Source of the DNA: Myxococcales bacterium
GTDB taxonomy: Bacteria > Myxococcota_A > Polyangia > Polyangiales > JAFGIB01
Assembly (NCBI GenBank): GCA_029880325.1
Contig: JAOUOP010000009.1
Location: forward strand, 57,012-121,011
Length of the DNA stretch: 64,000 nt
Reading direction: 5' to 3'
Shown: positions 4,998-56,163 of the stretch, piece by piece
Numbering within the stretch: the first letter of the stretch is position 1
Layout: each line of letters opens with the position of its first letter
The notes under the pieces: generated by a model
Seen by the model: the letters and a program-made list of their open reading frames with translations, nothing else
Told to the model about the DNA's origin: nothing
The model's database searches: none
Translations under genes and position numbers: made by a program

Positions 4998-5708
4998 TCA
5001 GAAGGGATTGATGGCGGACAGAAGGCGCGCCAGCCAGCCCTGCCGTTGGTTGTCGGTGAGGACACCGCGGCCGGTGAGCTCGATCTGGGCGTCGGCCACC
5101 AGGCTCGACTGCACGGAGTTGTCCTGCTCGATGTCCTGGGGACGAATCACACCGGAGACGTAGATGTGCAGCTCCTCATCGTTGACCATCAGCACCTTGG
5201 TGCCTTCGAGGAAAAGGTCTCCGTTGGGCAGAATGCGCCGCACGCGGACGGCGATGGCGGCGTGCACGCGGCTCTTGCGGCTGGTCTCGCCGTTGCCCGC
5301 GAAGGAACTCTGACTCATGAGTTCGATCAGCTGCGCCGGATCGATGTCCGGGTATTCATCGGCCAGGGCCTTCGACAGCCCCAAAAGACGCGGCGCACCG
5401 AGCGAGCTTTCGGTCATCCGATCCATGCCGGTCGAGGCGTCACCCTGGGCCTGGGGTGACTCGTCGACCACGATGGTCACCAGATCACCCACACCGCTGG
5501 CGCGGAAGTCGGCCACCAGCCCGCGGCTGGAGTCTTGCCACATGGAGCCCGGGCTGACCGCCTCGGGCGGACGCTCGTAGCGCCCTGGCTGGTAGTTGCG
5601 CTGGCGCGCCTTGTGGGGGCGGATGTGCTGCACGCCGCAACCACCGAAGAGCGACAGCATCAAAAGACCGGCAAGGGGGCGCAGCAAGCGCGCGCGCGAA
5701 GAACTCAT
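4998..5708 (-). CDS. flgH: Flagellar L-ring lipoprotein FlgH
   Basis: Lipoprotein signal LMLSLFGGC, then GDLVTIVVDE and the NGDLFLEGTKVLMVNDEELHIYVSGVIRPQDI core. Confidence 0.9.
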   Translation of the reverse strand: MSSSRARLLRPLAGLLMLSLFGGCGVQHIRPHKARQRNYQPGRYERPPEAVSPGSMWQDSSRGLVADFRASGVGDLVTIVVDESPQAQGDASTGMDRMTESSLGAPRLLGLSKALADEYPDIDPAQLIELMSQSSFAGNGETSRKSRVHAAIAVRVRRILPNGDLFLEGTKVLMVNDEELHIYVSGVIRPQDIEQDNSVQSSLVADAQIELTGRGVLTDNQRQGWLARLLSAINPF

Positions 5709-6412
5709 GGCAGTAGCTCCACCGTGTTTGCATCCAGCACGCGACCGCGCATCAGGCTCCTGCGCGACGGCAGCCTCAGCTTGATCACTTCACCGCGGCG
5801 GCCGGACTGGCGCGCCTCGGCCGTGGTCGAAGCCCGCACGTTGCCGACCACCGCCACGGCGCGCACACGCGCGCCGGCCTCGACCAGTGGTGGCGGACAG
5901 CTCAATGTAACGCGCAGTGGAAGTCGCTGACTGTGGCCACCGGCACTCAACTCGACGACGAGGCCCATACTGCCGGCACGCAGCGGCTCGCGTGCATCGA
6001 CCTCGGCCTCGACCTCACCGTCGCCCAAACGCACCTGCGAAGGTCCGCGCAGCGCTTCGAGCTCGCAAGGATCGACGGCGTCTGCCACCGCCGCCCGCAA
6101 CAGCGCTTCGAGTTCCTCGCCCGCGAGGCTCTGGACCCCGCGTTCGATGCGCGTTGCGCGCGGGATCTTCAGGCCCTGTGCCGAGTGACCCGCAGCCCGC
6201 AGGGCCCGCAGGATCTGGCGGCGCCGTACGGTGCGGCTGGCCCCCACCGGCGGCTCGGGCGCCACCACCACCGCGCCCACCTCGGAGCCGGCCAGAGCCG
6301 GTATAATCTCGGCCAGCGTGATGCCGGAATCGGCGAAGGCCGCAGGCGTCGATCCAAGCAAGAGCATCAACGACAGCAGAAGCGCGGCGATGGGCAAGCG
6401 TGGTGAGGGCAT
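5705..6412 (-). CDS. flgA: Flagellar P-ring assembly chaperone FlgA
   Basis: The track ORF extends to 6571. The preferred start is ATG 6412 (MPSPRLPIAALLLSLMLLLGSTPAAFA, a signal peptide). The C-terminus GEVIKLRLPSRRSLMRGRVLDANTVELLP is FlgA/SAF-like. Confidence 0.75.
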   Translation of the reverse strand: MPSPRLPIAALLLSLMLLLGSTPAAFADSGITLAEIIPALAGSEVGAVVVAPEPPVGASRTVRRRQILRALRAAGHSAQGLKIPRATRIERGVQSLAGEELEALLRAAVADAVDPCELEALRGPSQVRLGDGEVEAEVDAREPLRAGSMGLVVELSAGGHSQRLPLRVTLSCPPPLVEAGARVRAVAVVGNVRASTTAEARQSGRRGEVIKLRLPSRRSLMRGRVLDANTVELLP

Positions 6413-6425
6413 GACGCTGGAGTAC

Positions 6426-6440
6426 GCATGATTCATGCCA
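6426..6440 (-). promoter_or_regulatory. Candidate sigma54 -24/-12 promoter upstream of flgA
   Basis: Minus strand reads TGGCATGAATCATGC (GG-N10-GC), followed by a 13-nt spacer to ATG 6412. Confidence 0.45.
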
Positions 6441-7368: not shown

Positions 7369-7383
7369 CCTGACTTCTCCTGG

Positions 7384-7422
7384 GTCTTCTCTTCGTCTTC
7401 TCTTCGTCTTCTCTTCGTCTTC
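7384..7422. repeat. 11-bp tandem repeat (3.5 copies) in the flgF-flgG spacer
   Basis: Plus strand gtcttctcttc x3 plus a partial copy. On the coding strand this is GAAGAGAAGAC repeats just upstream of the flgG RBS. Confidence 0.9.
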
Positions 7423-7450
7423 GTCCTGTAGGCCGACGGGGCCGCGGCGT

Positions 7451-8199: not shown

Positions 8200-8991
8200 C
8201 TAGCTGGCCTTTCGGTTCTTAGTCGCGCGGTGCTTCCTGGTCGCAGGTGGCGCATCTACATTCATCGCAGCGCGAAGCCGCACCGTGATATCGCCCAGGA
8301 TTTGACAAACTCGACTTTCGGTTACACCCAAAATTTTCCCGATCTCGGCCTGTGTGCACTCTTCCTGGTAGTAGAGGGCCAGTACCTGCTGCTGCCGCTC
8401 GGGAAGCAGTGAGATGGCCCTCGTCAACTCCGCCTTGAGCTCAGCGCGATCGAACAGGGCGCTGGGCGTGGGGGTGTCGGCCTCGACCTGGTCGGGTTCG
8501 GCGCCGCCGAGGCGCCCCAGGGCCGGGCCCCGCGCGAGCTCTCCACTGATGCGTTGGTATTGCTCGAGCGGCATGCCGAGGCGGGCTGCGACCTCTTCTT
8601 CGGTGGGTTGGCGCCCCAGCTCGTTCTGCAGCGCGCGAATCGCGGCGGTCACTTCACCCATGCGGTTGCGGCCATAGCGGGTCAGCGAATCGTGACCGCG
8701 CAGCTCATCCAGAATTGCACCGCGGATGCGCGCCTTGGCGTAGGGCTCGAAGTTGGGGTTGCAGCTGGCGTCGTAGGCGCCGATGGCCTTGAGCAGGCCC
8801 TCGGTGCCGGCACTGATCAGGTCGTCGACCTCGATTGAATTGGGCAGTCTGCGCACCATGCGAAAAGCAATACGGCGCACGATTGGAAGGCCGATGGCGA
8901 CCAACTCATCGGCTGACAGCTCCGCGCGATGTCGGCCGTAGGCCTGGGCTCGGTCGATCGATTCGTTCAACATAGGTCCTCCTGGGGACAA
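8200..8991 (-). CDS. fliA: Flagellar sigma factor FliA (sigma-28)
   Basis: Sigma-70 regions 2-4. LLPERQQQVLALYYQEECTQAEIGKILGVTESRVCQILGD is the region 4 HTH. Located after flhF-flhG. Confidence 0.9.
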   Translation of the reverse strand: MSPGGPMLNESIDRAQAYGRHRAELSADELVAIGLPIVRRIAFRMVRRLPNSIEVDDLISAGTEGLLKAIGAYDASCNPNFEPYAKARIRGAILDELRGHDSLTRYGRNRMGEVTAAIRALQNELGRQPTEEEVAARLGMPLEQYQRISGELARGPALGRLGGAEPDQVEADTPTPSALFDRAELKAELTRAISLLPERQQQVLALYYQEECTQAEIGKILGVTESRVCQILGDITVRLRAAMNVDAPPATRKHRATKNRKAS

Positions 8992-13916: not shown

Positions 13917-14692
13917 CAGCGCACTCCCAGCACGTCGGCCAGGGCCGAGGGCAGACCACGCACGGCGATGCCGATGGCGCGGGCAATCGTGGGGGCGGCG
14001 GCGAAGAGCGAGAGAAGGCCGATGGTCACGGCCACCGCGAATGTCAGCGAGAAGAGCTGCACGCGCGGAGCGGCCCGCGCCACCAGGGCGGTACCGAGTT
14101 GAACGATGAACATCGTGGCGACCACGGGAGCTGCAATCTGCAGGCCCCGTGCCAGCATTGAAGAGCCCACCCCGAGCGCCGCCTCGCTGGCGAAAACCTC
14201 CATCACCGCCCCCGGCGGCGCCAGCTGCAAACTGGTCACAATCGCGCCCACGACGGCGTGATGTCCCTCAAAAACCAGGAAAATTAGGGCCCCGAAGTAT
14301 CCCAACAGGCGCGTGGTGGGCAGTGTGGCTTCACCCAGAGTGGGGTCGACGCTGGTGGCGAAACCCAGGCCCATGGAAAAGCCCGCCACCGTTCCGGCGA
14401 TCTCGACCGCTGCCAACGTGACGCGCACCGTCAGCCCGATGACGGAACCCACCATGATTTCCCCCAGACCAGCGCCCACAAGCAGCAGCGGTTCATGGCT
14501 TGCGGGCGGCGCCAGATCGAGCGGCAGCGCCGTGGCCCCCGCGATCCACAGGGTCAGCACAGCACGTATGCTGATCGGCGTCATGGTGCTGAAAGGTGGT
14601 GGCATCAGCGCCAAAATCACCCCCACTCTGAGTGAAACAAGGAATACCAGGGGCAGCGCAGTCGCGGCCGCCGCCTCGAGCGCCCCGCTCAT
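13916..14692 (-). CDS. fliR: Flagellar export protein FliR
   Basis: 258-aa polytopic membrane protein between fliQ and flhB. Confidence 0.88.
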   Translation of the reverse strand: MSGALEAAAATALPLVFLVSLRVGVILALMPPPFSTMTPISIRAVLTLWIAGATALPLDLAPPASHEPLLLVGAGLGEIMVGSVIGLTVRVTLAAVEIAGTVAGFSMGLGFATSVDPTLGEATLPTTRLLGYFGALIFLVFEGHHAVVGAIVTSLQLAPPGAVMEVFASEAALGVGSSMLARGLQIAAPVVATMFIVQLGTALVARAAPRVQLFSLTFAVAVTIGLLSLFAAAPTIARAIGIAVRGLPSALADVLGVR

Positions 14693-17248: not shown

Positions 17249-18213
17249 GCGTTCCTCACCTGTGGTGTCGCCGAAACTTCGATCGCCAAATTTCCATGCA
17301 GAATCACGGGGGCGCCCAATGCCACCGTGGTGTCGTCGATACGCAGCTCGAGGGGCACTTCGGGCGCCTTGTCGAGCCGAATGATGTCGCCCTTGCGAAG
17401 CATCAAGACGTCGCGCAGGGTGACGTCGGTCTGGCCGAGCACGGCGACCATGTCGACCATGGCCTCGCGCAAGCGCGCGCAGAGCCTCTCTTGGTCACCG
17501 GGCGTGCTGCGGTGCTTGCGCGGCTTGTGTCGCGGTAAAGTGTCGCGCACAGCTCCGGCCGATAGCGCCAGCATGACTTGCTCGCTGATCAAAGGCGTCA
17601 GCGCCACGCGCAACGAAACCTGCAGCATCGGCTCGAACTGCGTGAGCGCTGGCAGGTTGGTCATGTCAGTGAGAATTTCCTCGGGCGTGAGCGCCTTGGG
17701 GTCGTCGCACCAGGGCTCAGCGAAGGCTTCGACCAGCGCGACCAGCAGCGGAAGCAAGATGCGCCGATCGAGAGTGCTCAGTTCCGTGCGCGGCGGAGCC
17801 TTCTCCTCCTCGTCGAGACGCAACGGTGCGCCCAGGCGGCGATTGAGATAGAAGCTCACCAAGAGCGGCCCCAGAACCAGCAGTGCCGAACTCCCTCCGC
17901 GGGTGCTGATCGACAGCACCGCCGAACCGGGCTCGATGCTGTTTTTCACTACCTTGTAGGGCACGATTTCGGCGGGCTGTTCTTCACTGCTGGTCGAGAA
18001 GTTGGCCAGGCGCAAAAAGAAGCGGTCGGTGTGCTCGGCCAGGATTCGCGAGACGCCGTCAGCCTTGGAGAGGGAGTCACGTAGACGCCGCTCGGGGGAG
18101 GTGAGGTCAGCTTCGTCGACCGGCTCCTCACCCTCCATGCCAACGCGCAGGGCGTCGAGCAGGGCCGTGGTCTCTTCCGCCGATAGCAGCGGCTCGTTCG
18201 CGTCACCGCTCAT
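17245..18213 (-). CDS. fliM: Flagellar C-ring protein FliM
   Basis: 322 aa. N-terminal LLSAEETTALLDAL (CheY-P docking-type motif), a middle FliM domain and a C-terminal SpoA-like part. Confidence 0.9.
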   Translation of the reverse strand: MSGDANEPLLSAEETTALLDALRVGMEGEEPVDEADLTSPERRLRDSLSKADGVSRILAEHTDRFFLRLANFSTSSEEQPAEIVPYKVVKNSIEPGSAVLSISTRGGSSALLVLGPLLVSFYLNRRLGAPLRLDEEEKAPPRTELSTLDRRILLPLLVALVEAFAEPWCDDPKALTPEEILTDMTNLPALTQFEPMLQVSLRVALTPLISEQVMLALSAGAVRDTLPRHKPRKHRSTPGDQERLCARLREAMVDMVAVLGQTDVTLRDVLMLRKGDIIRLDKAPEVPLELRIDDTTVALGAPVILHGNLAIEVSATPQVRNA

Positions 18214-18704
18214 TGCACCACGAACTCGGTGAAGTAGATGCGCTTGATGACACCCTCGCCAACGACGCCGGCCAACTTGTTCTCGAGTTCCTCACGCATG
18301 GCGACCTTGTTTTCGACGCCAACGGTCTGCTGAACCCCGATGCCCGAGAAATAGAAAAGAGCCTGATCCCGCAAGGGAACCAGGCTCTCGTTGATCTGCT
18401 TTTCTGCTTGTTCGTTCTTGGCTTCGATTCTCAGTGAGACCTTGATGTAGCGACCGGCATCGGGGTCGGAGAGATTGGCCACGATGGGACGCATCTCGAC
18501 CAGCGGCCCGAAACTGGGGCCCTTGGCCTCCGAAACACCCGCATCACTGGCCCCACCGCCACCCCCGCCCGCGGCGCCGACGCGGTCCGTGCTGACCACG
18601 AAATAGCCAAGCCCCGCAAGGCCCAGCAGGTTGACCACGGCGAGCAAGACGACCAGGAGCCCGCTCTTGCCACGTTTTGTAGGTGTCTCGGCTTCCTTTT
18701 CCAT
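18210..18704 (-). CDS. fliL: Flagellar basal-body protein FliL
   Basis: 164 aa with a single TM. RYIKVSLRIEAKNEQAEKQINESLVPLRDQALFYF is the typical FliL core. Confidence 0.88.
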   Translation of the reverse strand: MEKEAETPTKRGKSGLLVVLLAVVNLLGLAGLGYFVVSTDRVGAAGGGGGGASDAGVSEAKGPSFGPLVEMRPIVANLSDPDAGRYIKVSLRIEAKNEQAEKQINESLVPLRDQALFYFSGIGVQQTVGVENKVAMREELENKLAGVVGEGVIKRIYFTEFVVQ

Positions 18705-18718
18705 GACTCTTCAGAAGA

Positions 18719-18733
18719 GCACGTCCCGTGCCA
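18719..18733 (-). promoter_or_regulatory. Candidate sigma54 -24/-12 promoter upstream of fliL
   Basis: Minus strand reads TGGCACGGGACGTGC (GG-N10-GC), followed by a 14-nt spacer (tcttctgaagagtc) to ATG 18704. Confidence 0.6.
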
Positions 18734-18868
18734 ACGCCGTGCCCGCAATTCGCGGGGGAATTCCCCCCCAAAGGCGCTCTCGAGCGACAAAAGCTCGACT
18801 TCCGGAAGCGCGCGGGCGACGGCGTCGTGACGGTGGTTTTCCATGGCGAATCGAGCCTCCAAAACCGA

Positions 18869-27496: not shown

Positions 27497-27895
27497 TCAG
27501 CCGTTGCCTCCGGTGGCCGCGTAGCGCAGCATCCCCAGGTGCTTGGAGATGAAACGCGCGGCGGCCTGGTAGCGCAGATCATTGGCCGCGAGCTTCGACA
27601 TCTCACGCTCGAGGCTGACGGAATTGCCGTCGGCGCCGACCGGAGCGGTCGTGTCCTCGACCCTGTGAACACCCTCGAGCCCCGGGCCGGCGCTCGCCGG
27701 ATTTAGGTGGCTCTTCTCGGTACGCGCCAACGGCAGCGTTCTGCCCTGCTCCACTTCACTGTCGCGCAAGATGTCGACGGGGCGAAATCCCGGGGTCTCG
27801 ACGTTGGCGATATTGGAAGCTACGACGTTATGGCGCTCGCGGTGGTACTCGAGAGCCTGCGTCAGAGCTTGGGCGCCATTGGACAGCGGCAGCAT
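27497..27895 (-). CDS. flgB: Flagellar rod protein FlgB
   Basis: MLPLSNGAQALTQALEYHRERHNVVASNIANVETPGFRP. The track start at 27913 is a TTG lying inside the sigma54 motif, so ATG 27895 is preferred. Confidence 0.9.
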   Translation of the reverse strand: MLPLSNGAQALTQALEYHRERHNVVASNIANVETPGFRPVDILRDSEVEQGRTLPLARTEKSHLNPASAGPGLEGVHRVEDTTAPVGADGNSVSLEREMSKLAANDLRYQAAARFISKHLGMLRYAATGGNG

Positions 27896-27909
27896 GGCCA
27901 GAATACGAA

Positions 27910-27924
27910 GCAACCTTCATGCCA
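27910..27924 (-). promoter_or_regulatory. Candidate sigma54 -24/-12 promoter upstream of flgB
   Basis: Minus strand reads TGGCATGAAGGTTGC (GG-N10-GC, TTGC -12 box), followed by a 14-nt spacer (ttcgtattctggcc) to ATG 27895. A sigma54 activator gene lies directly upstream. Confidence 0.6.
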
Positions 27925-28161
27925 CGGCGCTGAAGTCGAAAAAGCCCGAGATTTTGGGCCATGGGACCCGCCGACGGTGGATCTTTTCCGACACCCCGCC
28001 AGTCGGTTGACGGCGCCAAAATCTTGAGGGCGAAAGAGCACGACGCACACCACGATGCACACCACGACAACCCACACTCAGACGCCCCAAACGCAGATGA
28101 CCCGACCCCCCAGCGCGTGGGAAGTCGGGTCACTCACCCTGGAAGGGCAACGATGGGGGCT

Positions 28162-38124: not shown

Positions 38125-38796
38125 ATGCGATCTCAGAGCAAGCTAAACCTTGGGGAGGCCGAAGCACGGGAGGTGCTACGGCGCTACGAACCCGACGTCG
38201 AGAAGTTGGCCCAGCGTCTGCGGCCAGCGGTGGCGCGCGCGCGGGCCCTGGACCTGGATGACCTGCGAGCCGAAGGCCGCATCGCAGTGCTCGAAGCCAT
38301 CTCCTCCTACGGTGGATACGGCGTACCCGAGCGCACCTGGGTCCGCACCCGCGTCCGCCAACGCATGATCGACACCATTCGGCGCTTCGATATCCGCACT
38401 CGCGACGAGATCCGGCTGGCCATGAAATACGCTCACGGCGAGACCGAAAACGAGCAGGAACACGAGGCCGGACGCGCCGCCGCCTCGCGTCAGATGATGT
38501 CGCTGGATTGGACCGGAAGCGACGGCCGCTCGCTCATGTCGCGCCTGAGCAATGATCGCGACTGCACGAACGAGACCGGCCCAGAGCACGATGCCCACGT
38601 CCAGCGCCAACGCCAGCGCCTGATGGACGCCATCAGCGAGCTGTCACCGCGCCAGCAGCGGGTGCTGAAGTTCCGCCTGTTCTACGGCCTGTCCCTGCGC
38701 GAAGTGGGCGATCACCTGGCGATCACCGAGTCTCGTGCTTGTCAGCTCCAAAAGCGTGCCGTGGAGCGACTGAGCCAGGCGATGCGAGCGAGCTAA
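38125..38796 (+). CDS. Second FliA/WhiG-type (group 3) sigma factor
   Basis: Region 2 DLDDLRAEGRIAVLEAISSY...VRTRVRQRMIDTIRR. Region 4 LSPRQQRVLKFRLFYGLSLREVGDHLAITESRACQLQKRAVERL. GAAGGGAG Shine-Dalgarno upstream. Confidence 0.8.
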   Translation: MRSQSKLNLGEAEAREVLRRYEPDVEKLAQRLRPAVARARALDLDDLRAEGRIAVLEAISSYGGYGVPERTWVRTRVRQRMIDTIRRFDIRTRDEIRLAMKYAHGETENEQEHEAGRAAASRQMMSLDWTGSDGRSLMSRLSNDRDCTNETGPEHDAHVQRQRQRLMDAISELSPRQQRVLKFRLFYGLSLREVGDHLAITESRACQLQKRAVERLSQAMRAS

Positions 38797-48250: not shown

Positions 48251-49099
48251 TCAGCTCGCCGCCTCCAGCGCGGCGCTCGGCACAGCTTTTTTTCGGTAGG
48301 CGACAGCCCGCTCGAAGCGCGTGAGCTGGTAGTCGTCGTCGATGCCCAAGGTGGTCTCGGAGCCGCCCAGGAAAAAGTAGCCCTCGTGATCCATCACGCC
48401 GCGCACCCTGCGCAAGATGGTCTTCTTGGTGGCCGTGTCGAAGTAGATCAGCACGTTGCGAATCAGGACCAGATCCATCCTGGGGATCGCAGGCCAGGCG
48501 GACGCCAAGTTCATCTGGCGAAAGTCGATCAGCTCGCGCAGCTGTTGCTTGACCTGCCACTGGGCACCGTTTTTGTCGAAGTACTTGACGAGCATGCGCG
48601 CGGGTAACCCGCGATTGACTTCGAGCTGCGAATACAGACCTTCCTGGGCCCGGGCCAGCACCTGGGTGTCGATGTCGGTGCACAACATTTGAACCGAGCG
48701 CCGATCCAGGCCCTTGATGCAATTGGCCAGGGTCATCAGCACACTGTAGGGCTCCTGGCCGGTCGAGGTCGCACCGCACCAAATGCGGATCGGCTGCCGG
48801 CCGCGGCGCGCGACGATGTCCGGAATGACCTTCTGCTCCAGCGCACGATAGACACCGGCGTCCCGGAAGAACGACGTCTCGTTGGTCGTCATGGCCTCGA
48901 CCACCTTGCGGTGCAGCTCACCCCAACGGCTCGCGCGCAGCCGTCTGATCAGCTCGGCGACGCTTTCGAGCTTCTCCGAACGAACCAAGGTCCCCAAGCG
49001 CGCATCGACCAGATAGACCTTCGTGTCGTCGAGCACGATGGCAGAGTTGTCACGCACCATGGTTTGGATGTACTGGAATTCGGCGGGGGTAACACCCAT
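48251..49099 (-). CDS. cheR: Chemotaxis methyltransferase CheR
   Basis: TTNETSFFRD, a SAM-binding IWCGATSTGQEPYS motif and LIRNVLIYFD. Confidence 0.93.
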   Translation of the reverse strand: MGVTPAEFQYIQTMVRDNSAIVLDDTKVYLVDARLGTLVRSEKLESVAELIRRLRASRWGELHRKVVEAMTTNETSFFRDAGVYRALEQKVIPDIVARRGRQPIRIWCGATSTGQEPYSVLMTLANCIKGLDRRSVQMLCTDIDTQVLARAQEGLYSQLEVNRGLPARMLVKYFDKNGAQWQVKQQLRELIDFRQMNLASAWPAIPRMDLVLIRNVLIYFDTATKKTILRRVRGVMDHEGYFFLGGSETTLGIDDDYQLTRFERAVAYRKKAVPSAALEAAS

Positions 49100-49103
49100 G
49101 TTC

Positions 49104-50225
49104 CTACTCCTGTACCGCGACCCGCGCGGCTACACTCAACGCACCGCGTCCCGATCGGGACGCCAAGACACGACGCACCAGCTCCCTTCCCAATTCCTTG
49201 GGCGGTAGCGTGACGCTGCTGAGCCCGGCACGAACGACGTGGCCGGGCATGCCCCACACCACCGAACTCGCTTCGTCCTGAGCCATGATCAGGGCGCCCC
49301 GATCGCGGAGCTTCTCACAGCCCAGCAAGCCGTCCTGACCCATGCCCGTGAGGATTACCCCCAGAGCTCGGCCACCGTAGAGCGTGGCGACCGACTCGAA
49401 GAGCACATCCACCGCGGGACGGCAGAAATGGACCGGAGCCCCCTGGTCGAGCTTCACCGTGACTTTCGGGGAAGCGCTGAGTCTCATGTGATGGTCGCCC
49501 GGCGCGATCAACGCCTGACCCGGTATCAGCGCCTCGCCCCCCTTGGCTTCTGCCACACCGATCTTGCACTGCCCGTCCAGGCGCTCGGCCAAGAAACGGG
49601 TGAACACCGGTGGCATGTGCTGAACCAACACAAGCGGCACGGGGAAGTCCGCCGGGAACACCGAGAGAAACTCCGCCAGCGCGTTGGGGCCTCCAGTGGA
49701 GGACCCGACGGCCACCAGCTCCACCGGCTGCGACGGTGGCGGCCGCAGAGGGCGCACCACGCGCCGCGGCTCGGACTTCGCTGCGGCCTTGGCGGGAGTG
49801 AATACGGGCTTGGTCGGCCTGGGTCCGAAGGCTTTGATCTTGGGGATCAGCTCCTTGCGCAGGCGATCGAGGGACTCGGTGACGCTGCCCACGTTGGCGG
49901 GCTTGGTGACGTAGTCGTTGGCACCCAGGGCGAGCGCATCGAGCGTTGCCACCGCTCCGCGCTCGGTCAGGGTGCTGAACATTATAACCGGAAGTTTTGG
50001 ATAGAGCTTGCGAATTTCCGCAAGGGTCGCGAGCCCGTCCATCTCCGGCATTTCCATGTCCAGCGTCACCACGTCAGGCTGCAGCTGCTGAATCTTGTTG
50101 AGGCCGATCCTGCCGTGGGCGGCGCTGCCCACGACCTGCAGGGCCGGATCCTCACCGAGGGTGGTGGTCAGAATGCGCCGTACGACGATCGAGTCGTCGA
50201 CGACGAGCACGCGAATGGCAGACAC
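49104..50225 (-). CDS. cheB: Chemotaxis methylesterase/deamidase CheB
   Basis: REC domain (IRVLVVDDS...VVTLDMEMPEMDG) plus an esterase domain (GSSTGGP, ...GMGQDG...). Confidence 0.93.
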   Translation of the reverse strand: MSAIRVLVVDDSIVVRRILTTTLGEDPALQVVGSAAHGRIGLNKIQQLQPDVVTLDMEMPEMDGLATLAEIRKLYPKLPVIMFSTLTERGAVATLDALALGANDYVTKPANVGSVTESLDRLRKELIPKIKAFGPRPTKPVFTPAKAAAKSEPRRVVRPLRPPPSQPVELVAVGSSTGGPNALAEFLSVFPADFPVPLVLVQHMPPVFTRFLAERLDGQCKIGVAEAKGGEALIPGQALIAPGDHHMRLSASPKVTVKLDQGAPVHFCRPAVDVLFESVATLYGGRALGVILTGMGQDGLLGCEKLRDRGALIMAQDEASSVVWGMPGHVVRAGLSSVTLPPKELGRELVRRVLASRSGRGALSVAARVAVQE

Positions 50226-50596
50226 TAGCCCCCCCCGACGCCGAGAAGCTCGAGCTTCTCCTGAATTACCTCTTTGGTAAAAGGCTTCATCACGTACTCG
50301 TCGGCGCCCGCGTCCAGTGCCTGCTGCATTTGCTCCAACTCCGACTCGGTGGTGACCATCATCACTCGCATCGAGTCGAAATCTGAGCGCGTGCGAATCA
50401 TGCGCACGAAGTCGTAGCCGTTCATCTCCGGCATATTCCAGTCGACCAAGGCGAGCTCGGGGTGCTCGACTTCGCGCAGCAGCTGCAGCGCGTCCAGACC
50501 ATGGGCCGCTTCGAGAACCTCGAATCCCACTTCCTTCAGAATCTTGCCGAGGATCTTCCTCATCGCGGTCGAGTCGTCGACTACCAATGCTCGCAT
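50225..50596 (-). CDS. cheY: Chemotaxis response regulator CheY
   Basis: 123 aa from ATG 50596. MRALVVDDSTAMRKIL...LALVDWNMPEMNG...YVMKPF. The track ORF extends upstream into the spacer. Confidence 0.9.
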   Translation of the reverse strand: MRALVVDDSTAMRKILGKILKEVGFEVLEAAHGLDALQLLREVEHPELALVDWNMPEMNGYDFVRMIRTRSDFDSMRVMMVTTESELEQMQQALDAGADEYVMKPFTKEVIQEKLELLGVGGG

Positions 50597-50654
50597 CGTC
50601 TTGCTCTCCTGTGCGCGACCTGTCGGCCGTGTCGTTCGATAGGGGTCATGAAGA

Positions 50655-50688
50655 GGCCGGGCGGACGAGGGCGGACGCCCGCCCGGCC
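50655..50688 (-). terminator. GC-rich hairpin between mcp and cheY (attenuator/terminator-like)
   Basis: The 10-bp arms ggccgggcgg and ccgcccggcc enclose a 14-nt loop. The hairpin starts 7 nt after the mcp stop and has only a weak U-rich tail. Confidence 0.4.
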
Positions 50689-50694
50689 CTCGGG

Positions 50695-53064
50695 TCAACC
50701 CTTTTGCAGCTCTGCCGCCATACGATTGAGTTCCTCGGCGGCGCGTTGGCAATCGGCCGCTCCGGTCGTCGTGCTCTGAGCCGCGTCCGCGACCGCCGTG
50801 ATGTTCTCGGCGATCTCGGCGCTGCCGCGTGCGGCCTCGCTGATGTTGCGGCTGATGTCGCTGGCGGTCGCGGTCTGCTCCTCAACCGCCGTGGCGATGG
50901 TCACCTGGATGTCGTTGATCTGCTTGACGATCTCGTTGATCTGGGCGATGGCCTCGACAGCGCCGTTGGTGTCGCCCTGGATCGCCTCGATCTTCTGGCT
51001 GATGTCCTCCGAGGCGGTGGCCGTTTCCTTGGCCAACTCCTTGACCTCGTTGGCCACGACGGCAAATCCCTTGCCGGCTTCGCCCGCGCGCGCCGCCTCG
51101 ATGGTGGCGTTGAGCGCCAGCAGGTTGGTCTGCTGCGCGATGGAGGTGATCACCTTGATGACCTTGCCGATCTCCGTGCTGCTCTCACCCAACTTGGCCA
51201 CGGTGGCGTTGGTGCGCTCTGCCAGCTCGACACCCGTGGTGGCGACGCCCGAAGCATCGCTGGCGTTTTGCGCGATCTCCTTGATGCTGGCGCCCAGCTG
51301 CTCCATGCCGGCGGCCACGGTCTGCACGTTGCGGCTAACCTGCTCGCTGGCAGCCGAGACCACGTTGGCCTGGGCCGAGGTTTCCTCGGCGTTCGAAGCC
51401 ATCTGTTGACTGACAGCGAGCAGCTCCTCCGACGAGGTTGCAAGCGCGGTCTGCAGCTCGGCTGCGGTCTTTTCGTCGGCCACTTGCTGGGTGATGTCCG
51501 ACCAGGTCACCATGGCACCGATGTAGTCGCCCCGATTGTCGTAGATCGGGCTGACCAGCAGATCGAGGGTGGCCGGGCCCACCCCGATCTTGGCGTTGTG
51601 CGGCAAGTTGCTGGAGTCGGAGAGCAGGGCGCGCTGATGGGCTGGATTCTTGTGGAAAACGTCGATGCAGGTGCCCACGAGATCGTCGACCCGAACCGGT
51701 AGGTATTGCTCGAGGGTCTTGAGCGTACGCGTGGACGCGGGGTTTACGTACTGGATGACGTTGTCGCGGTCGGCGAACATCACGTTGACCGGCGCGTTCT
51801 CCATCATCGAGTTCACGCGCGCCATTTCGCGCTCGAGCTTCAGCCGATCGGTCACCACCTCCCAGGTCACCATCGGTCCCACGAACTGCCCGTCGGTGCC
51901 GTAGACGGCGCTGACCAGGAGGTCGAGGTACTCGCCTCCGAGTTCGATGACCGCGCGGTGGGGAAGGTTCCTGGGGTCACCCAGGAGTTTCCGCTGGTGG
52001 GATGGATTTTTGTGAAAGATGTCGACCGACGAGCCCACCACCTCGCTGGCGCGGCAGGGCAAGAGGTGCTCGATCTTCTTCAGCGTCTCGACCGAAGCCT
52101 TGTTGATATAGCGGATCACCAGATCGGTGTCGGCGAACATCACGTTCAGCGGCGCCCCATCGAGCATGGTGCGGTACTGTGCCAGATCGTCATCGTCGGA
52201 AGCGGCGCGGTCGCTTACGTTTTCCCAGCTCGCAACGTAGCCCTCGATCTTGCCCTTGTCGTCGAGCATGGCCTGAAAGCGCGTCTCGATGGTGGCCTCG
52301 CCCAGCTGCACGCTGCTGCTCTCGGGCAGCTTGCGCGGATCGGAAAGCAACCTCTTGGCCTTGCGACCGCGCTCGTGCAAGTCGAAGAGGTCGGCCCCCT
52401 CCCAGTCGTCGACGCCCCAGCCCAACGCCTCCAACGCGCTTTCGGGCAGCTCATCGAGGGCCTGTCGTGCCGCCTCGTTGGCGTGGGTAATCTTCAAGTT
52501 GGCCCCGGCCACAAAAATGCAGACCGGCGCCGCATCGAGCGCGACCTGACTCACGCGCGCCATCTCACCGGGCGGTTTGGGCACAGCCGACAAATGTGCG
52601 GGCGGCTGCACGGACGTTCCATTGCTTCGCATCGACTTTCCTCCGTTCGCGGGCTTTTCTTCGCTCGCCCGAGTACTCTTTTGATTGACGACCGATTCCT
52701 TCACAGACGCGGCCACGCCCAGCACTTCGTTGGCCAGGGCGGAGGGCACGCGCAGGGACTTCAGCGCGGCCCTGAGGTGCAGGGCCACGGCCTCGAAGTG
52801 CTCGCCCTCGATCGGAAGATGCGCATGGGCATCCTTCATGCTGCGACCCCGGTAGCGGTTCGGCCCCCCGAACGCATGGGTCAGGAAATCCACCTGCTGA
52901 TTCTTGAGCCAGCGGATATCGACGCCCTCGAAGAACGGCTCCAGGCTATCGTCGCTCAAGACGCGCAGGTAGAGTTCGTCGACCACCGCACGGATGGCCT
53001 TGCGGCCTCCGAGGCGTTCGAAGAGCGGCGGGGTGCTAGCGGCTGCGTTTGCGGAACGTGACAT
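50695..53064 (-). CDS. Soluble methyl-accepting chemotaxis protein: truncated hemoglobin + 3 PAS + MCP signalling domain
   Basis: aa 10-125, [70 protein letters not shown], fit the group I trHb pattern. Three PAS-like repeats follow, two carrying (D)IFHKNP. The C-terminal hairpin has [28 protein letters not shown]. No TM segment is present. Confidence 0.85.
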
Positions 53065-53101
53065 TGATGGGCTCTCCTGGAAAATCGCTCGGAATGTTCT
53101 T

Positions 53102-53563
53102 TCAGTTGACCGTGGCGTGATGCCGGCTTTCGCCGCCGACGGTGTTGATGGCGCGGTCGATATCGAGAATCAGCAGCAATTTGCCCTCGAGCTTGTAGAC
53201 GCTGCTGACCAGTTCGCGGGTAACGTCCCGCAGGGTGGCCGGGGGCGACTCGATGCAGTCGTCGTCGACTTCCATCACATCGCCGATCTCATCGACCAGG
53301 AGGCTGACCGGACCGTCTCCCGTACGCACGACGACGTTCATCGGAAGTTGGCCCTCGTCTGCATCGGGCAGGAGAAAGCGGCGCCTGAGATCGATGGCCG
53401 TCACGATCTGCCCCCGCAGGTTGATGAGCCCGCGCACCACCTTGGAGACGATAGGAACGGGAGTCATCTGCTGATAGCGCAGAACTTCCTGAACTTTTTC
53501 CACCTCGACCCCGAAGAAGAGGTCGCCGAGGTGAAAGGTGCAAATCTGATGGGTCTCGTGCAT
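53102..53563 (-). CDS. cheW: Chemotaxis coupling protein CheW
   Basis: 153 aa. [22 protein letters not shown] and [19 protein letters not shown]. Confidence 0.92.
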
Positions 53564-53566
53564 CGC

Positions 53567-55918
53567 TCAGGCTCCCGCCGCCATCGGCAAGCTGTCTTCG
53601 AATATATGACTGGAGACCGTGGAGACGACGGCATCGAGGTCGATCAACTCGACCACGCGCCCCTGCACCACGGTTGATCCGAGCACCCCGTTGCGTCGCC
53701 CGACTGGACGCAGATCGACGTGCTCGTCGACGATGTCGCGAATCGTGTCCACAGCCACGCCCACGTTGCGACCATTCTGGGAGTAGACCACCACATGCAT
53801 CACGTCGCGGTCACCCCCTCCGGAACCAATGTTGGGGTGATTGACTACGGCACCCAGGTGGGCGACCGGCATGATGTCGCCTCGGTACTGGATCACGTCG
53901 TAGGTGCCCACGCTCTCGAGCGCAGTCGCTGGCAGTTCCTCGAGCCGCGCGACTTTGGAAAGCGGAATCGCAAAAGGGCGTTGATTGACGTCCACCAGGA
54001 GCAGCGTTTGACGGTCACCACGCTCAGAGGATTCCGACTCGAGCACCTCGCTCAGGTCGCGCGCCTGGGCTTCGGAGATGACACGGGCCTGCTGCGCCAG
54101 ACCGAGCACGTCCAGGATCAACGCCACGCGCCCATCTCCCATGATGGTCGCGCCCGCGAACGCGCTGGCAGCCTTGAGCTGCTTGCCCAGGGGCTTGACC
54201 ACGATTTCCTCGGTGTCCTGCACCCCGTCGACCACCAGTCCAAACTGGCGATCGTCTGCCTGCAGCACCACGATATTGCAGATTTCGTCCTGCCCATCGG
54301 TTGGGGATTCAATGCCCAACTCCTGATTGAGGTATACGAGCGGTAGAAGTTGGCCGCGCAGCCGGTAAACGGGCGCCGACTGGATACGCTCGATACCGCT
54401 GCGCACCTGCTCGCCTTCCAGCCGCACGAGTTCCAGCAAACTGACCTGCGGGATCGCGTAGCGCTCCCCCCCACAGCGCACGATCAGGGCGGGGATGATG
54501 GCCAGCGTCAGGGGGATCTTCACCTTGAAGGTGGTTCCCTTGCCGGGCGCACTGTGGAGGTCGACAGTGCCACCGATGCGCTCGATGTTGGTCTTGACCA
54601 CGTCCATACCGACGCCCCGACCCGAAACATTGGTGACCTGCTCCGCCGTCGAAAAGCCTGGCAGGAAGATCAAGTTGAGCAATTGCCGCTCACCCATTCG
54701 CGACAGCTGCTCGGCGCTGAGTAGACCGCGGTCGAGGGCACGCTGCTTGAGCTTCTCCGGCGAGATGCCGGCGCCGTCGTCGGCGATCTCAATGTTGACC
54801 TGACCACCCTCGTGATAGGCGCGCAGCTGCAGCACGCCCACCGGATCCTTGCCCGCGGCCCTGCGATCATCGGGGCGCTCGATGCCGTGGTCGACGCAGT
54901 TGCGGACCAGGTGCGTCAACGGGTCCTTGATCGCCTCGATCAGTGTACGGTCAAGACCGGTCTCCTTGCCTTCCATCTCTAGGCGGACCTGTTTGCGACA
55001 GGTTCTGGCCAGGTCTCGAACGACCCGCGGTAGTTTGCTCCAGACGGTGCCGATGGGCTGCATACGCGTGCGCATCACGCCCTCCTGCAGCTCCGTGGTC
55101 ACCAGGTTCAAGCGCTGGGTGGTGGCCTGTAACGCCTGGTTATCGACCTCATCGGCAAACTGCAAAATCTGGTTGCGAGCCAGAACCAGCTCTCCCACCA
55201 GATTCATCAGCTTGTCCAGGAGGTCTACGTGCACACGAATGCTGGAGTCGGCCACCGCTGTCGAGCCGGAGCGGCTTTCACTGCTGAAGGCCTCCTCGGA
55301 GTCGACCACGGCTGCGGCTTCGGGCACCTTCGTTTCAGTCGGCGGCGCGCTGGGAGCGGCGACCGGAGCTTGCGCAGCCGCCTCTTCGATCGCCTGCTCG
55401 AAGTCGGACTCGATTGTGGCTGCGACAGGAGCCGCTTCGGAGACGCCGGCCGACCGCGGCTCCACCTCGACCACGGGCTCGGAGGCCTGCGCTGCGGGCT
55501 CGGAGGCCTGCGCTTCGGCCTCCTCGCTGGCGCCGGGCTCGAGCAGACGTGTAAGTTCGGCCACGAGCGCCGAGTAATCGCCGTCGCCCTCTTCGCCCAC
55601 GTGCTCAATATTAGCCAGCATCTCACGCACGGCGTCGACAGTCTTGAGCAACGCCGTGGCGATGGCCCCGTCGAGCTGGATCGCGCCATCGCGAATCCGG
55701 CTCAGGAGGTTTTCACCGACATGGGTCAGGGCCTCGAGCTTGCTGTAGCCCAAGAAGCCGCAGGTACCCTTGATGGTGTGGATCGTCCGGAAGATGCGAG
55801 CGATGACCTCCGGCTCGTTGGGCGATTCCTCGAGTATCACCAGGTCGCGCTCGAGCTGGTCCAGGTTCTCGTAACTCTCGATCAAAAACTCTTGTACGAC
55901 GTCGTCGAGATCATCCAT
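53567..55918 (-). CDS. cheA: Chemotaxis histidine kinase CheA with two tandem CheW-like domains
   Basis: Hpt (RIFRTIHTIKGTCG), a dimerisation domain and HATPase (DDGAGI...GRGVGMDVV). The first CheW-like domain is CGGERYAIPQVSLLELV...GDGRVALILDV. The second is LLLVDVNQRPFAIPLSKVARLEEL...QGRVVELIDLD. Confidence 0.92.
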   Translation of the reverse strand: MDDLDDVVQEFLIESYENLDQLERDLVILEESPNEPEVIARIFRTIHTIKGTCGFLGYSKLEALTHVGENLLSRIRDGAIQLDGAIATALLKTVDAVREMLANIEHVGEEGDGDYSALVAELTRLLEPGASEEAEAQASEPAAQASEPVVEVEPRSAGVSEAAPVAATIESDFEQAIEEAAAQAPVAAPSAPPTETKVPEAAAVVDSEEAFSSESRSGSTAVADSSIRVHVDLLDKLMNLVGELVLARNQILQFADEVDNQALQATTQRLNLVTTELQEGVMRTRMQPIGTVWSKLPRVVRDLARTCRKQVRLEMEGKETGLDRTLIEAIKDPLTHLVRNCVDHGIERPDDRRAAGKDPVGVLQLRAYHEGGQVNIEIADDGAGISPEKLKQRALDRGLLSAEQLSRMGERQLLNLIFLPGFSTAEQVTNVSGRGVGMDVVKTNIERIGGTVDLHSAPGKGTTFKVKIPLTLAIIPALIVRCGGERYAIPQVSLLELVRLEGEQVRSGIERIQSAPVYRLRGQLLPLVYLNQELGIESPTDGQDEICNIVVLQADDRQFGLVVDGVQDTEEIVVKPLGKQLKAASAFAGATIMGDGRVALILDVLGLAQQARVISEAQARDLSEVLESESSERGDRQTLLLVDVNQRPFAIPLSKVARLEELPATALESVGTYDVIQYRGDIMPVAHLGAVVNHPNIGSGGGDRDVMHVVVYSQNGRNVGVAVDTIRDIVDEHVDLRPVGRRNGVLGSTVVQGRVVELIDLDAVVSTVSSHIFEDSLPMAAGA

Positions 55919-56163
55919 GGCTTCGCTTGCACTCCATCACAAGGTGCGGGTCGGTGTATTCAAGGTCGGGTGCGCGCCGGACCCCTACGCGGTGACAGCT
56001 CCCTCGCCGCGCAGATGAGTACCGTCGTAGTACCCGGTGACTAAGCAAGACGCGTGCCTCGCCGGTGCAGGGCAAAGCACGCGAAAAAGTGCGCGTGATG
56101 TCGGTCGCCAGCCCCCGCTTCGGCAAGCCTCTGGCGCTGTGCTGACATGGCCTTGACATCCCC

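Follow-up and report, generated by a model that had tools for sequence, protein, structure and literature searches.

Can a sigma-54 promoter lie so close to a start codon that its messenger is left with practically no 5' untranslated region (5' UTR)? The question is raised by a 64,000-nucleotide stretch of DNA from a Myxococcales bacterium (contig JAOUOP010000009.1; hereafter, the window), in which the first-pass annotation had noticed a GG-N10-GC sigma-54 motif 14 nt from the flgB ATG, without a Shine-Dalgarno (SD) sequence between them, and the same geometry before fliL and flgA.

Sigma-54 boxes at the heads of three flagellar operons

As determined by NCBIfam and Pfam searches, the window holds a complete flagellar regulon on the minus strand. 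The flgB operon is composed, in this order, of flgB, flgC, fliE, fliF, fliG, fliH, fliI, flgD, and flgE; the fliL operon of fliL, fliM, a FliO-like gene, fliP, fliQ, fliR, flhB, flhA, flhF, flhG, fliA, flgF, and flgG; and the flgA operon of flgA, flgH, flgI, flgJ, and flgK. Also present in the window are motAB, a second sigma-70-family gene, PilZ and CheX genes, and a full che operon. The identities confirmed by NCBIfam agree with the earlier statement that flgB, fliL, and flgA are the heads of the three flagellar operons. The elements that precede these genes are:

27910..27924, minus strand: sigma-54 -24/-12 box of the flgB operon, TGGCATGAAGGTTGC (pattern match, and orthologous box in relatives)
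27896..27909, minus strand: flgB spacer, ttcgtattctggcc, 14 nt from the -12 GC to the start codon; without SD, and holding the transcription start site predicted from sigma-54 geometry
18719..18733, minus strand: sigma-54 -24/-12 box of the fliL operon, TGGCACGGGACGTGC, with 14 nt between it and the start codon (pattern match, and relatives)
6426..6440, minus strand: sigma-54 -24/-12 box of the flgA operon, TGGCATGAATCATGC, with 13 nt between it and the start codon (pattern match, and relatives)

When re-read on the minus strand, the flgB arrangement was found as first described, with the GG-N10-GC box running from 27924 to 27910, 14 nt free of an SD, and the ATG at 27895 (...gccgTGGCATGAAGGTTGCttcgtattctggccATGctgccg...). 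The recurrence of this geometry at flgA could also be reproduced (box 6440..6426, 13 nt, ATG at 6412), and so could that at fliL, with its 14-nt spacer and ATG at 18704, except that the ATG coordinate previously implied for fliL was off by one base. All three heads share the GG-N10-GC box, a spacer of 14 (flgB), 14 (fliL), or 13 nt (flgA), an ATG, and the absence of an SD.

The flgB box is the sole match in the window to TGGCA-N6-TTGC with zero mismatches. The pattern TGGCA-N7-TGC is found at six sites, both strands considered, and three of the six are the flgB, fliL, and flgA boxes. The chance of finding an ATG that opens an ORF of 130 codons or more at a spacer of 13 or 14 nt is 0.0063 (0.63%) per position in the window, and the probability that three of six boxes would have such an ATG by chance is p = 4.9e-6, or 0.006 under a lenient definition. 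The box-start geometry at the three operon heads is real, conserved among relatives, and well beyond chance. Other sigma-54-like boxes of the window do not belong to this class: those at 14154 (in fliR) and 11357 (in flhA) are internal to genes, while those at 36239, 38080 (TTGA for TTGC), and 56059 have leaders of ~20–145 nt with SDs. The cluster has sizeable intergenic gaps only at the places where the three boxes lie, of 266 nt upstream of flgB, 164 nt at fliL, and 173 nt at flgA, so that the adjacency of box and start codon is not explained by lack of space.

The adjacent activator and its neighbors

The following genes are those that would be expected to take part in the control of the three promoters, or that belong to the same hierarchy:

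28162..29586, minus strand: NtrC-family response-regulator activator with a receiver domain, an AAA+ sigma-54-interaction domain with GAFTGA, and HTH_8 (NtrC, FlgR, and FlbD family models)
29761..32518, plus strand: two sensor histidine kinase genes, the second a receiver-kinase hybrid, divergent from the activator
8203..8964, minus strand: fliA-type sigma factor (family search), after flhF-flhG; flgF begins 5 nt past the fliA stop

An NtrC-type sigma-54 activator gene had been reported to end 250 bp upstream. Its family and GAFTGA motif were corroborated, but the distance was not: the stop codon lies at 28162–28164, 238 bp upstream of the flgB box. The ATG at 29586, preceded by the SD GGAGTGGAG, is the probable start of this gene. 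The activator gene also adjoins flgB in five related loci. The regulator encoded at 28162..29586 is the probable activator of all three promoters, and the two divergent kinases are candidates for its partners. RpoN was not among the window ORFs submitted to family searches, which covered all but a few short candidate ORFs; an activator with an intact GAFTGA motif implies that sigma-54 is present in the host. A comparison of shared 8–10-mers, in either orientation, showed no convincing activator-binding sequence common to the regions upstream of the three window promoters, and an Rfam scan of the whole window showed no known RNA families.

Start codons of flgB, fliL, and flgA

The meaning of the spacing depends on the start codons of the three genes, whose coding sequences are:

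27497..27895, minus strand: flgB, 132 aa, ATG at 27895 (TIGR01396 covers residues 7–126)
18210..18704, minus strand: fliL, 164 aa, ATG at 18704, heading the fliL...flhBAFG-fliA-flgFG operon (NCBIfam FliL models)
5705..6412, minus strand: flgA, 235 aa, ATG at 6412, with the signal-peptide N-terminus MPSPRLPIAALLLSLMLLLGSTPAAFA (TIGR03170)

The N-terminal position of FlgB aligns in 39 homologues, most of them of 131–133 aa, and the first 37 codons of flgB, through the conserved ASNIAN-TPGF motif, contain no further in-frame ATG, GTG, or TTG. FliL opens with basic residues that lead into a membrane helix, and FlgA with a typical signal peptide. The public gene calls of the source contig have the same starts for FlgB (132 aa) and FlgA (235 aa). 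The TTG at 27913 was rejected as a start for flgB, as it is inside the -12 box and without counterpart in relatives. Predicted folding of the first 36 nt after the start codons was weaker than that of internal windows (-5.2 vs -9.0 kcal/mol, p = 6e-10), a result that supports the start codons only and not leaderlessness, because the SD-led genes are equally low in 5' structure. Elsewhere, gene finders repeatedly misplace starts of this kind, choosing ATGs within the -24 or -12 box, extending the N-terminus by 10–27 residues, or truncating the signal peptide; when the start was taken at the box-adjacent codon, the signal peptides of the relatives' FlgA proteins were restored. Conserved N-termini, profile coverage, signal peptides, and low 5' structure, all read from sequence, support the box-adjacent codons as the authentic starts.

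Conservation of box and spacing in relatives

The nearest FlgB and FlgA proteins belong to Myxococcota metagenome-assembled genomes (MAGs) labelled Myxococcales or Polyangiales, and the window itself is from a MAG of Polyangiales type. Related loci were taken from species-representative genomes, metagenome contigs, and exact-protein look-ups; among the first, L001–L006 comprise Polyangiales, Polyangiaceae, and Nannocystales genomes and a single MAG named "delta proteobacterium" that clusters with these. The matches listed by the scans of genomes and metagenomes with the FlgB alignment were mostly from distant taxa, used as outgroups, and the close relatives were obtained by the exact-protein look-ups. 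Spacing was measured independently of gene calls, as the distance that separates the top-scoring sigma-54-type box from the base that tblastn aligns with Met1 of FlgB, and this distance was short in the Myxococcota-type loci. It was also measured by a motif-first approach, in which the box was located and then the next ORF-opening start codon.

The compiled table contains 47 box/start pairs from two phyla, which are not phylogenetically independent, and all 47 have GG-N10-GC. Of the 35 Myxococcota-type pairs, 18 are at flgB, seven at fliL, three at flgA, five at flgG, one at fliG, and one at a FliM-like gene; their spacers are of 12 (two pairs), 13 (15), 14 (11), 15 (one), 17 (five), and 18 nt (one). 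The other 12 pairs are from an Acidobacteriota-like group, which includes named Terriglobia and Bryobacterales MAGs, and have spacers of 14 (two), 15 (nine), and 16 nt (one). The start codon is ATG in 33 pairs and GTG in 14. In the first 35 boxes compiled, the base counts were T31 G35 G35 C31 A31 Y33 G23 ... T21 T33 G35 C35 W31, and the invariant GG-N10-GC was retained in the 12 boxes added later. The compiled consensus agrees with yTGGCACGrnnnTTGCw, given in a study of Myxococcus xanthus as the sigma-54 consensus validated in that organism (PMC12754779).

The box is conserved at orthologous positions while its flanks diverge. The orthologous flgB box is kept in 18 of 20 Myxococcota-type flgB loci and the fliL box in six related loci (L001, L161, L163, L165, L167, and L174), and flgA of L171/L172 and of L173 has the same geometry with a 14-nt spacer. 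The exceptions are the flgB of L003, at 38 nt, the L083 locus, with a degenerate box, a leader, and an SD, and the fliL of L176, with an SD and no box. The gene that bears the promoter varies among relatives (flgG, fliG, or a FliM-like gene), and the box abuts the start codon each time. For example, flgG is an internal gene with an SD in the window, and has its own box 12–17 nt upstream in L002, L004, L005, L006, and L176. That the adjacency is re-created wherever the promoter sits argues for a functional constraint instead of a frozen accident. A gene for a secreted protein in L002 was also seen to have a box, 15 nt from its GTG.

Outside of these groups, the distances were larger. Among the matches listed, the outgroup flgB boxes lie 30–57 nt from FlgB Met1, with obvious SDs, in 11 of 12 loci with a box score of at least 4.5, the twelfth (L090) having a 109-nt site far upstream. 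Geobacterales, Gammaproteobacteria, and Planctomycetales were among the outgroups measured. The first-pass annotation had proposed conservation of motif and spacing in relatives as a check, and both are kept in the 47 pairs from two phyla, while the outgroups have normal leaders.

Shine-Dalgarno sequences and other promoter elements

Internal genes of the regulon have recognizable SDs, namely AAGGAGA (flgC), AGGAG (flgG), GGAG (fliG), and AAGGAA (motA). The earlier description of clear AGGAG-type sites at such genes is therefore right for flgC and flgG, but not for motA. Upstream of the box-adjacent start codons, an SD-like core (GGAG, GAGG, or AGGA) is absent from 42 of the 47 spacers. In the five spacers that contain one, the core falls at or upstream of the predicted transcription start; these include the flgB spacer of L174, with GGAGG 7 nt before the GTG, and the spacers of L169 and L082.

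No sigma-70-type promoter was matched in the three intergenic regions with an E. coli-type consensus, which may miss myxobacterial promoters. A terminator scan of the same regions found no same-strand terminators, and the genes upstream of the three boxes are co-oriented with flgB, fliL, and flgA. Inspection of the spacers by eye, without counting, revealed no common -10 element (TANNNT or TGnTA, ending ~6–7 nt before the start codon). The flgB spacer has a TATTCT that ends 4 nt from the ATG, and this is not conserved in relatives.

Predicted position of the transcription start

By convention, the GC of a sigma-54 promoter is placed at -13/-12. With the GC in that position, the 5' UTR would be of 1–6 nt (1–3 nt for the class with 13–14-nt spacers), and not of 0 nt. 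In a differential RNA-seq study of Campylobacter jejuni, the motif GGaa-N6-tTGCTt ends 8–13 nt upstream of the mapped starts (PMC3847290). According to the way in which the 3' end of the motif is counted, these distances put the start ~9–15 nt beyond the C, and initiation on the start codon itself is thus within the observed range.

The bases around the start codon bear on the same point. The base that precedes it is a pyrimidine in 42 of the 47 pairs, compared with 58–60% at 194 SD-led starts of the same loci (binomial p = 5e-6, for sites that are not independent), and all the box-adjacent start codons begin with a purine. A pyrimidine at -1 and a purine at +1 are the usual preference for initiation (PMC12403871). 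The combination is a hint that transcription may initiate on the start codon itself. There is also a mild enrichment in G 11 nt after the GC (19 of 35 boxes), in view of which a leader of 2–4 nt may be formed.

Leaderless mRNAs have been defined as those with at most 5 nt between the transcription start and the start codon (PMC12754779, citing Beck and Moll 2018). If transcription starts 9–15 nt after the GC, spacers of 12–15 nt (41 of 47) would leave a 5' UTR of ~0–5 nt, and the transcripts of this class would fall within that operational definition (at most 5 nt). The 17–18-nt class would have a 5' UTR of ~3–8 nt. In E. coli, leaderless initiation is weakened by the addition of as little as a few nucleotides at the 5' end.

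Alternative explanations

Three other accounts were weighed against these data. The boxes could be real sigma-54 promoters that mainly serve the downstream cistrons, with flgB, fliL, and flgA being translated chiefly from transcripts that read through from upstream promoters. The upstream genes are indeed co-oriented, no clear terminator was found before the boxes, and the SD-like cores in the L174, L169, and L082 spacers would be usable solely by a read-through transcript. A longer transcript, however, would not aid translation at the 42 of 47 spacers without an SD-like core. Moreover, read-through leaves unexplained why the spacing is so tight and clade-specific (13–14 or 15 nt) and why a pyrimidine is favored at -1, as well as the fact that the promoter relocates between genes and yet lands on a start codon. 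We consider this account unlikely.

Somewhat more improbable, in our judgment, is that the first genes are carried on leadered mRNAs from unrecognized upstream promoters and translated independently of an SD, while GG-N10-GC is the operator of a regulator or a sigma-54 roadblock. The conserved positions are the exact sigma-54 consensus (invariant GG and GC at N10, with flanking T, CA, TT, and W), a GAFTGA activator is adjacent, sigma-54 is well known to act on the rod and hook operons of flagella, and the outgroup flgB carries the same box with a leader. In favor of this account, the E. coli-type sigma-70 scan may overlook myxobacterial promoters, and the sigma-54 dependence of the boxes is predicted from their sequence. 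The third account is that the matches arose by chance and that the start codons were wrongly chosen. With one mismatch allowed, a loose sigma-54 pattern is indeed no more frequent in the window than in shuffles (20 observed vs 16.8 expected), but three of the six matches to the strict pattern sit 13–14 nt from operon-first ATGs (p ~5e-6), and the orthologous conservation in 47 pairs and two phyla comes with N-termini that were independently confirmed. The comparative data effectively refute this account, to which we attach hardly any probability.

Proposed mechanism

We regard it as likely that activator-gated sigma-54 promoters yield leaderless or near-leaderless first cistrons here, with a 5' UTR of ~0–5 nt. 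According to this model, the neighboring kinases would phosphorylate the adjacent NtrC-family response regulator, which would then remodel the closed complex of the sigma-54 holoenzyme on the GG-N10-GC box. The target operons would be flgBC-fliEFGHI...flgDE, fliLM...flhBAFG-fliA-flgFG, and flgAHIJ...flgK. Counted from the GC, the predicted start of the sigma-54 polymerase lies ~9–15 nt downstream and the start codon 13–15 nt downstream, so that the 5' end of the mRNA would lie on the start codon or 1–5 nt before it. Ribosomes would recognize the 5'-proximal AUG or GUG of the first cistron and translate it by the leaderless route, with no need of an SD, and the downstream cistrons would rely on ordinary SDs or on translational coupling. 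In this model, the dependence on sigma-54, the precise point at which transcription begins, and the way in which ribosomes are recruited are inferred.

In a stricter version of the model, the first base transcribed by the sigma-54 polymerase would be the purine of the start codon itself, which would put the -12 GC near -14/-15 in Myxococcota and near -16 in Acidobacteriota. The result would be a conserved, truly leaderless, and activator-gated class. This version is conceivable, and we advance it only tentatively.

Comparison with known systems

The gene content of the window recalls the polar flagellates, whose sigma-54 class II/III promoters are controlled by FlgSR (Campylobacter, Helicobacter), FlrBC (Vibrio), FleSR (Pseudomonas), or FlbD (Caulobacter), and sigma-54-controlled flagellar genes are also found in Geobacter. 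As in those bacteria, a -24/-12 box precedes the rod, hook, and basal-body operons, an NtrC-family regulator is accompanied by a candidate partner kinase, and FlhF/FlhG and FliA are in the same regulon. The gene content of a hierarchy of the FlgSR/FlrBC/FleSR type is all present here. The difference is that here the box abuts the start codon without an SD, whereas in the sampled outgroups it lies 30–57 nt from flgB, with an SD. The 5' UTRs of C. jejuni are normal (PMC3847290). Flagellar genes in uncultured Myxococcota had been noted earlier (bioRxiv 10.1101/2021.07.06.451402).

Leaderless mRNAs of the sigma-70 type, whose -10 box adjoins the ORF, are described in Deinococcus-Thermus (PMC12340547), in Actinobacteria, and for the TGnTA motif of B. 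japonicum (PMC4842269) and the myxobacterial sigma-A promoter of pexR (PMC12754779). They resemble the present case in having a promoter element immediately before the start codon, no SD, and an AUG or GUG at or near the 5' end, which here is a prediction; they differ from it in that the element here is a -24/-12 in place of a -10 box and would be strictly activator- and ATP-gated instead of constitutive. According to PMC4842269, leaderless starts of B. japonicum carry an extended -10 motif, and its authors remark that specific promoters for leaderless genes have not been described. The closest sigma-54 promoters are those of katB and ahpC in M. xanthus, which are activated by PexR and share with ours the phylum, the consensus, and a nearby activator gene, but which, unlike ours, serve stress genes (PMC12754779). 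In the same study, leaderless expression in M. xanthus is proposed solely for the sigma-A promoter of pexR and not for the sigma-54 promoters, and this proposal is the one hint, from the literature, that the ribosomes of such hosts may translate leaderless mRNAs.

That sigma-54-driven leaderless mRNAs are not a described class, as had been supposed when the motif was first noticed, is in line with the open-access literature, in which no description was found, including papers on S. meliloti, Leptospira, C. jejuni, B. japonicum, Cupriavidus, Methylosinus, and M. xanthus. What is new is best seen as the combination of sigma-54 promoters with leaderless mRNAs, each of them already known by itself. 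Sigma-54 is largely absent from the phyla in which leaderless mRNAs are best known.

Biological significance

The box-adjacent geometry has direct uses for annotation, in which a rule of "sigma-54 box plus 12–18 nt" would correct misplaced starts. It also suggests a possible tool, a compact, zero-background expression element without a 5' UTR. The class may extend beyond flagellar genes, as the secreted-protein gene of L002 would illustrate.

The clade-specific spacing (13–14 vs 15 nt) predicts where the sigma-54 polymerase would start in each lineage, and also limits the number of 5' nucleotides that these ribosomes would tolerate. If the conserved leaderless version holds true, the most tightly gated class of bacterial promoters can feed SD-independent initiation, and Myxococcota and Acidobacteriota translate leaderless messages efficiently. 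Should initiation take place exactly on the start codon, enhancer-dependent transcription would be coupled directly to SD-independent initiation by 70S ribosomes.

Distribution of the box-start architecture

The architecture described here, a sigma-54 box (GG-N10-GC) placed 12–18 nt before the first start codon, usually without a Shine-Dalgarno (SD) sequence, was also found at flgB in the Acidobacteriota-like loci L043, L069, L076, L110, L122, L127, L148, L151, L158, and L159, where the spacer is 14–16 nt, with a mode of 15. Because named Acidobacteriota are among these loci (L043, L069, and L076 are Terriglobia and Bryobacterales MAGs), the pattern occurs in two phyla, with clade-specific spacing. 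L043 and L122 carry a second gene with the same architecture, whose product has 450–467 aa and an N-terminus beginning MSS.

A non-flagellar member of the class may be present in the compared locus L002. The box TGGCCCGAGAATTGC, at 8277 on its minus strand, is separated by a 15-nt spacer from a downstream GTG, from which an ORF of 242 aa begins. The encoded protein has a signal peptide (MKKIRSVASGIGLASAW...) and repeats rich in lysine, aspartate, and alanine. In L010 (Desulfuromonadales), the spacing between a weak box upstream of flgB, TGGCGTCGTCCCTGC, and the ATG is 17 nt, and those 17 nt contain a perfect SD, GAAGGAG; the box is either a chance match or a promoter overlapping with the SD.

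Starts beside these promoters are systematically misplaced by automatic gene calls. The loci concerned are L161 (19191), L163 (19544), L171 (5155)/L172 (6001), L174 (5054), and L176 (10001), and the proteins P0010, P0017, P0021, P0081, P0090, P0091, P0105, and P0119. Some of the wrong starts are an ATG belonging to the −24 box (ATGGCA...) or to the −12 box (...ATGC), while others are an ATG further upstream, which adds 10–27 residues to the N-terminus. For flgA of L171 and L172, the called start is a downstream ATG, so that the n-region of the signal peptide is lost.

Surroundings of the window promoters

No motif common to the flgB, fliL, and flgA promoters was found when these three window promoters were compared. 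The 14-bp sequence GGGGGAATTCCCCC (about 18746–18759), a perfect palindrome, is separated from the downstream fliL box by 12 nt. The region upstream of the flgB box (about 28040–28140) holds two copies of the direct repeat TCGTGGTGTGC, and an inverted repeat, GACCCGAC...GTCGGGTC, 3′ of the stop codon of the NtrC-family activator gene. These elements near fliL and flgB could be activator sites, IHF sites, or a weak terminator. In the flgF-flgG spacer (about 7372–7425, minus strand), gaagacgaagagaa occurs three times in tandem, directly 5′ of the flgG SD, AGGAG.

Two sigma-70-family genes are present in the window:

8203–8964, minus strand: fliA-type gene, after flhF-flhG
38127–38796, plus strand: second sigma-70-family gene

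The flgF start is 5 nt past the stop of the fliA-type gene. Upstream of the second gene is TGGCACGACTCTTGA, with GA where GC is expected, and its leader of about 20 nt carries a GGGAG SD. The plus-strand ORF 8413–8838, called in the composition-based gene map, is spurious.

Flagellar and chemotaxis genes

In the classical view, Polyangiales-type myxobacteria are gliders without flagella. The host of the present gene set, a full flagellar, motor, and chemotaxis complement (710–36162 and 48251–55936), is a Polyangiales-type myxobacterium; uncultured Myxococcota with flagellar genes have been mentioned earlier (bioRxiv 10.1101/2021.07.06.451402). The che operon includes:

50695–53169, minus strand: chemoreceptor

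With an N-terminal bacterial globin domain, a PAS domain, and an MCP signalling domain, this receptor is a globin-coupled sensor, probably serving oxygen or NO taxis.
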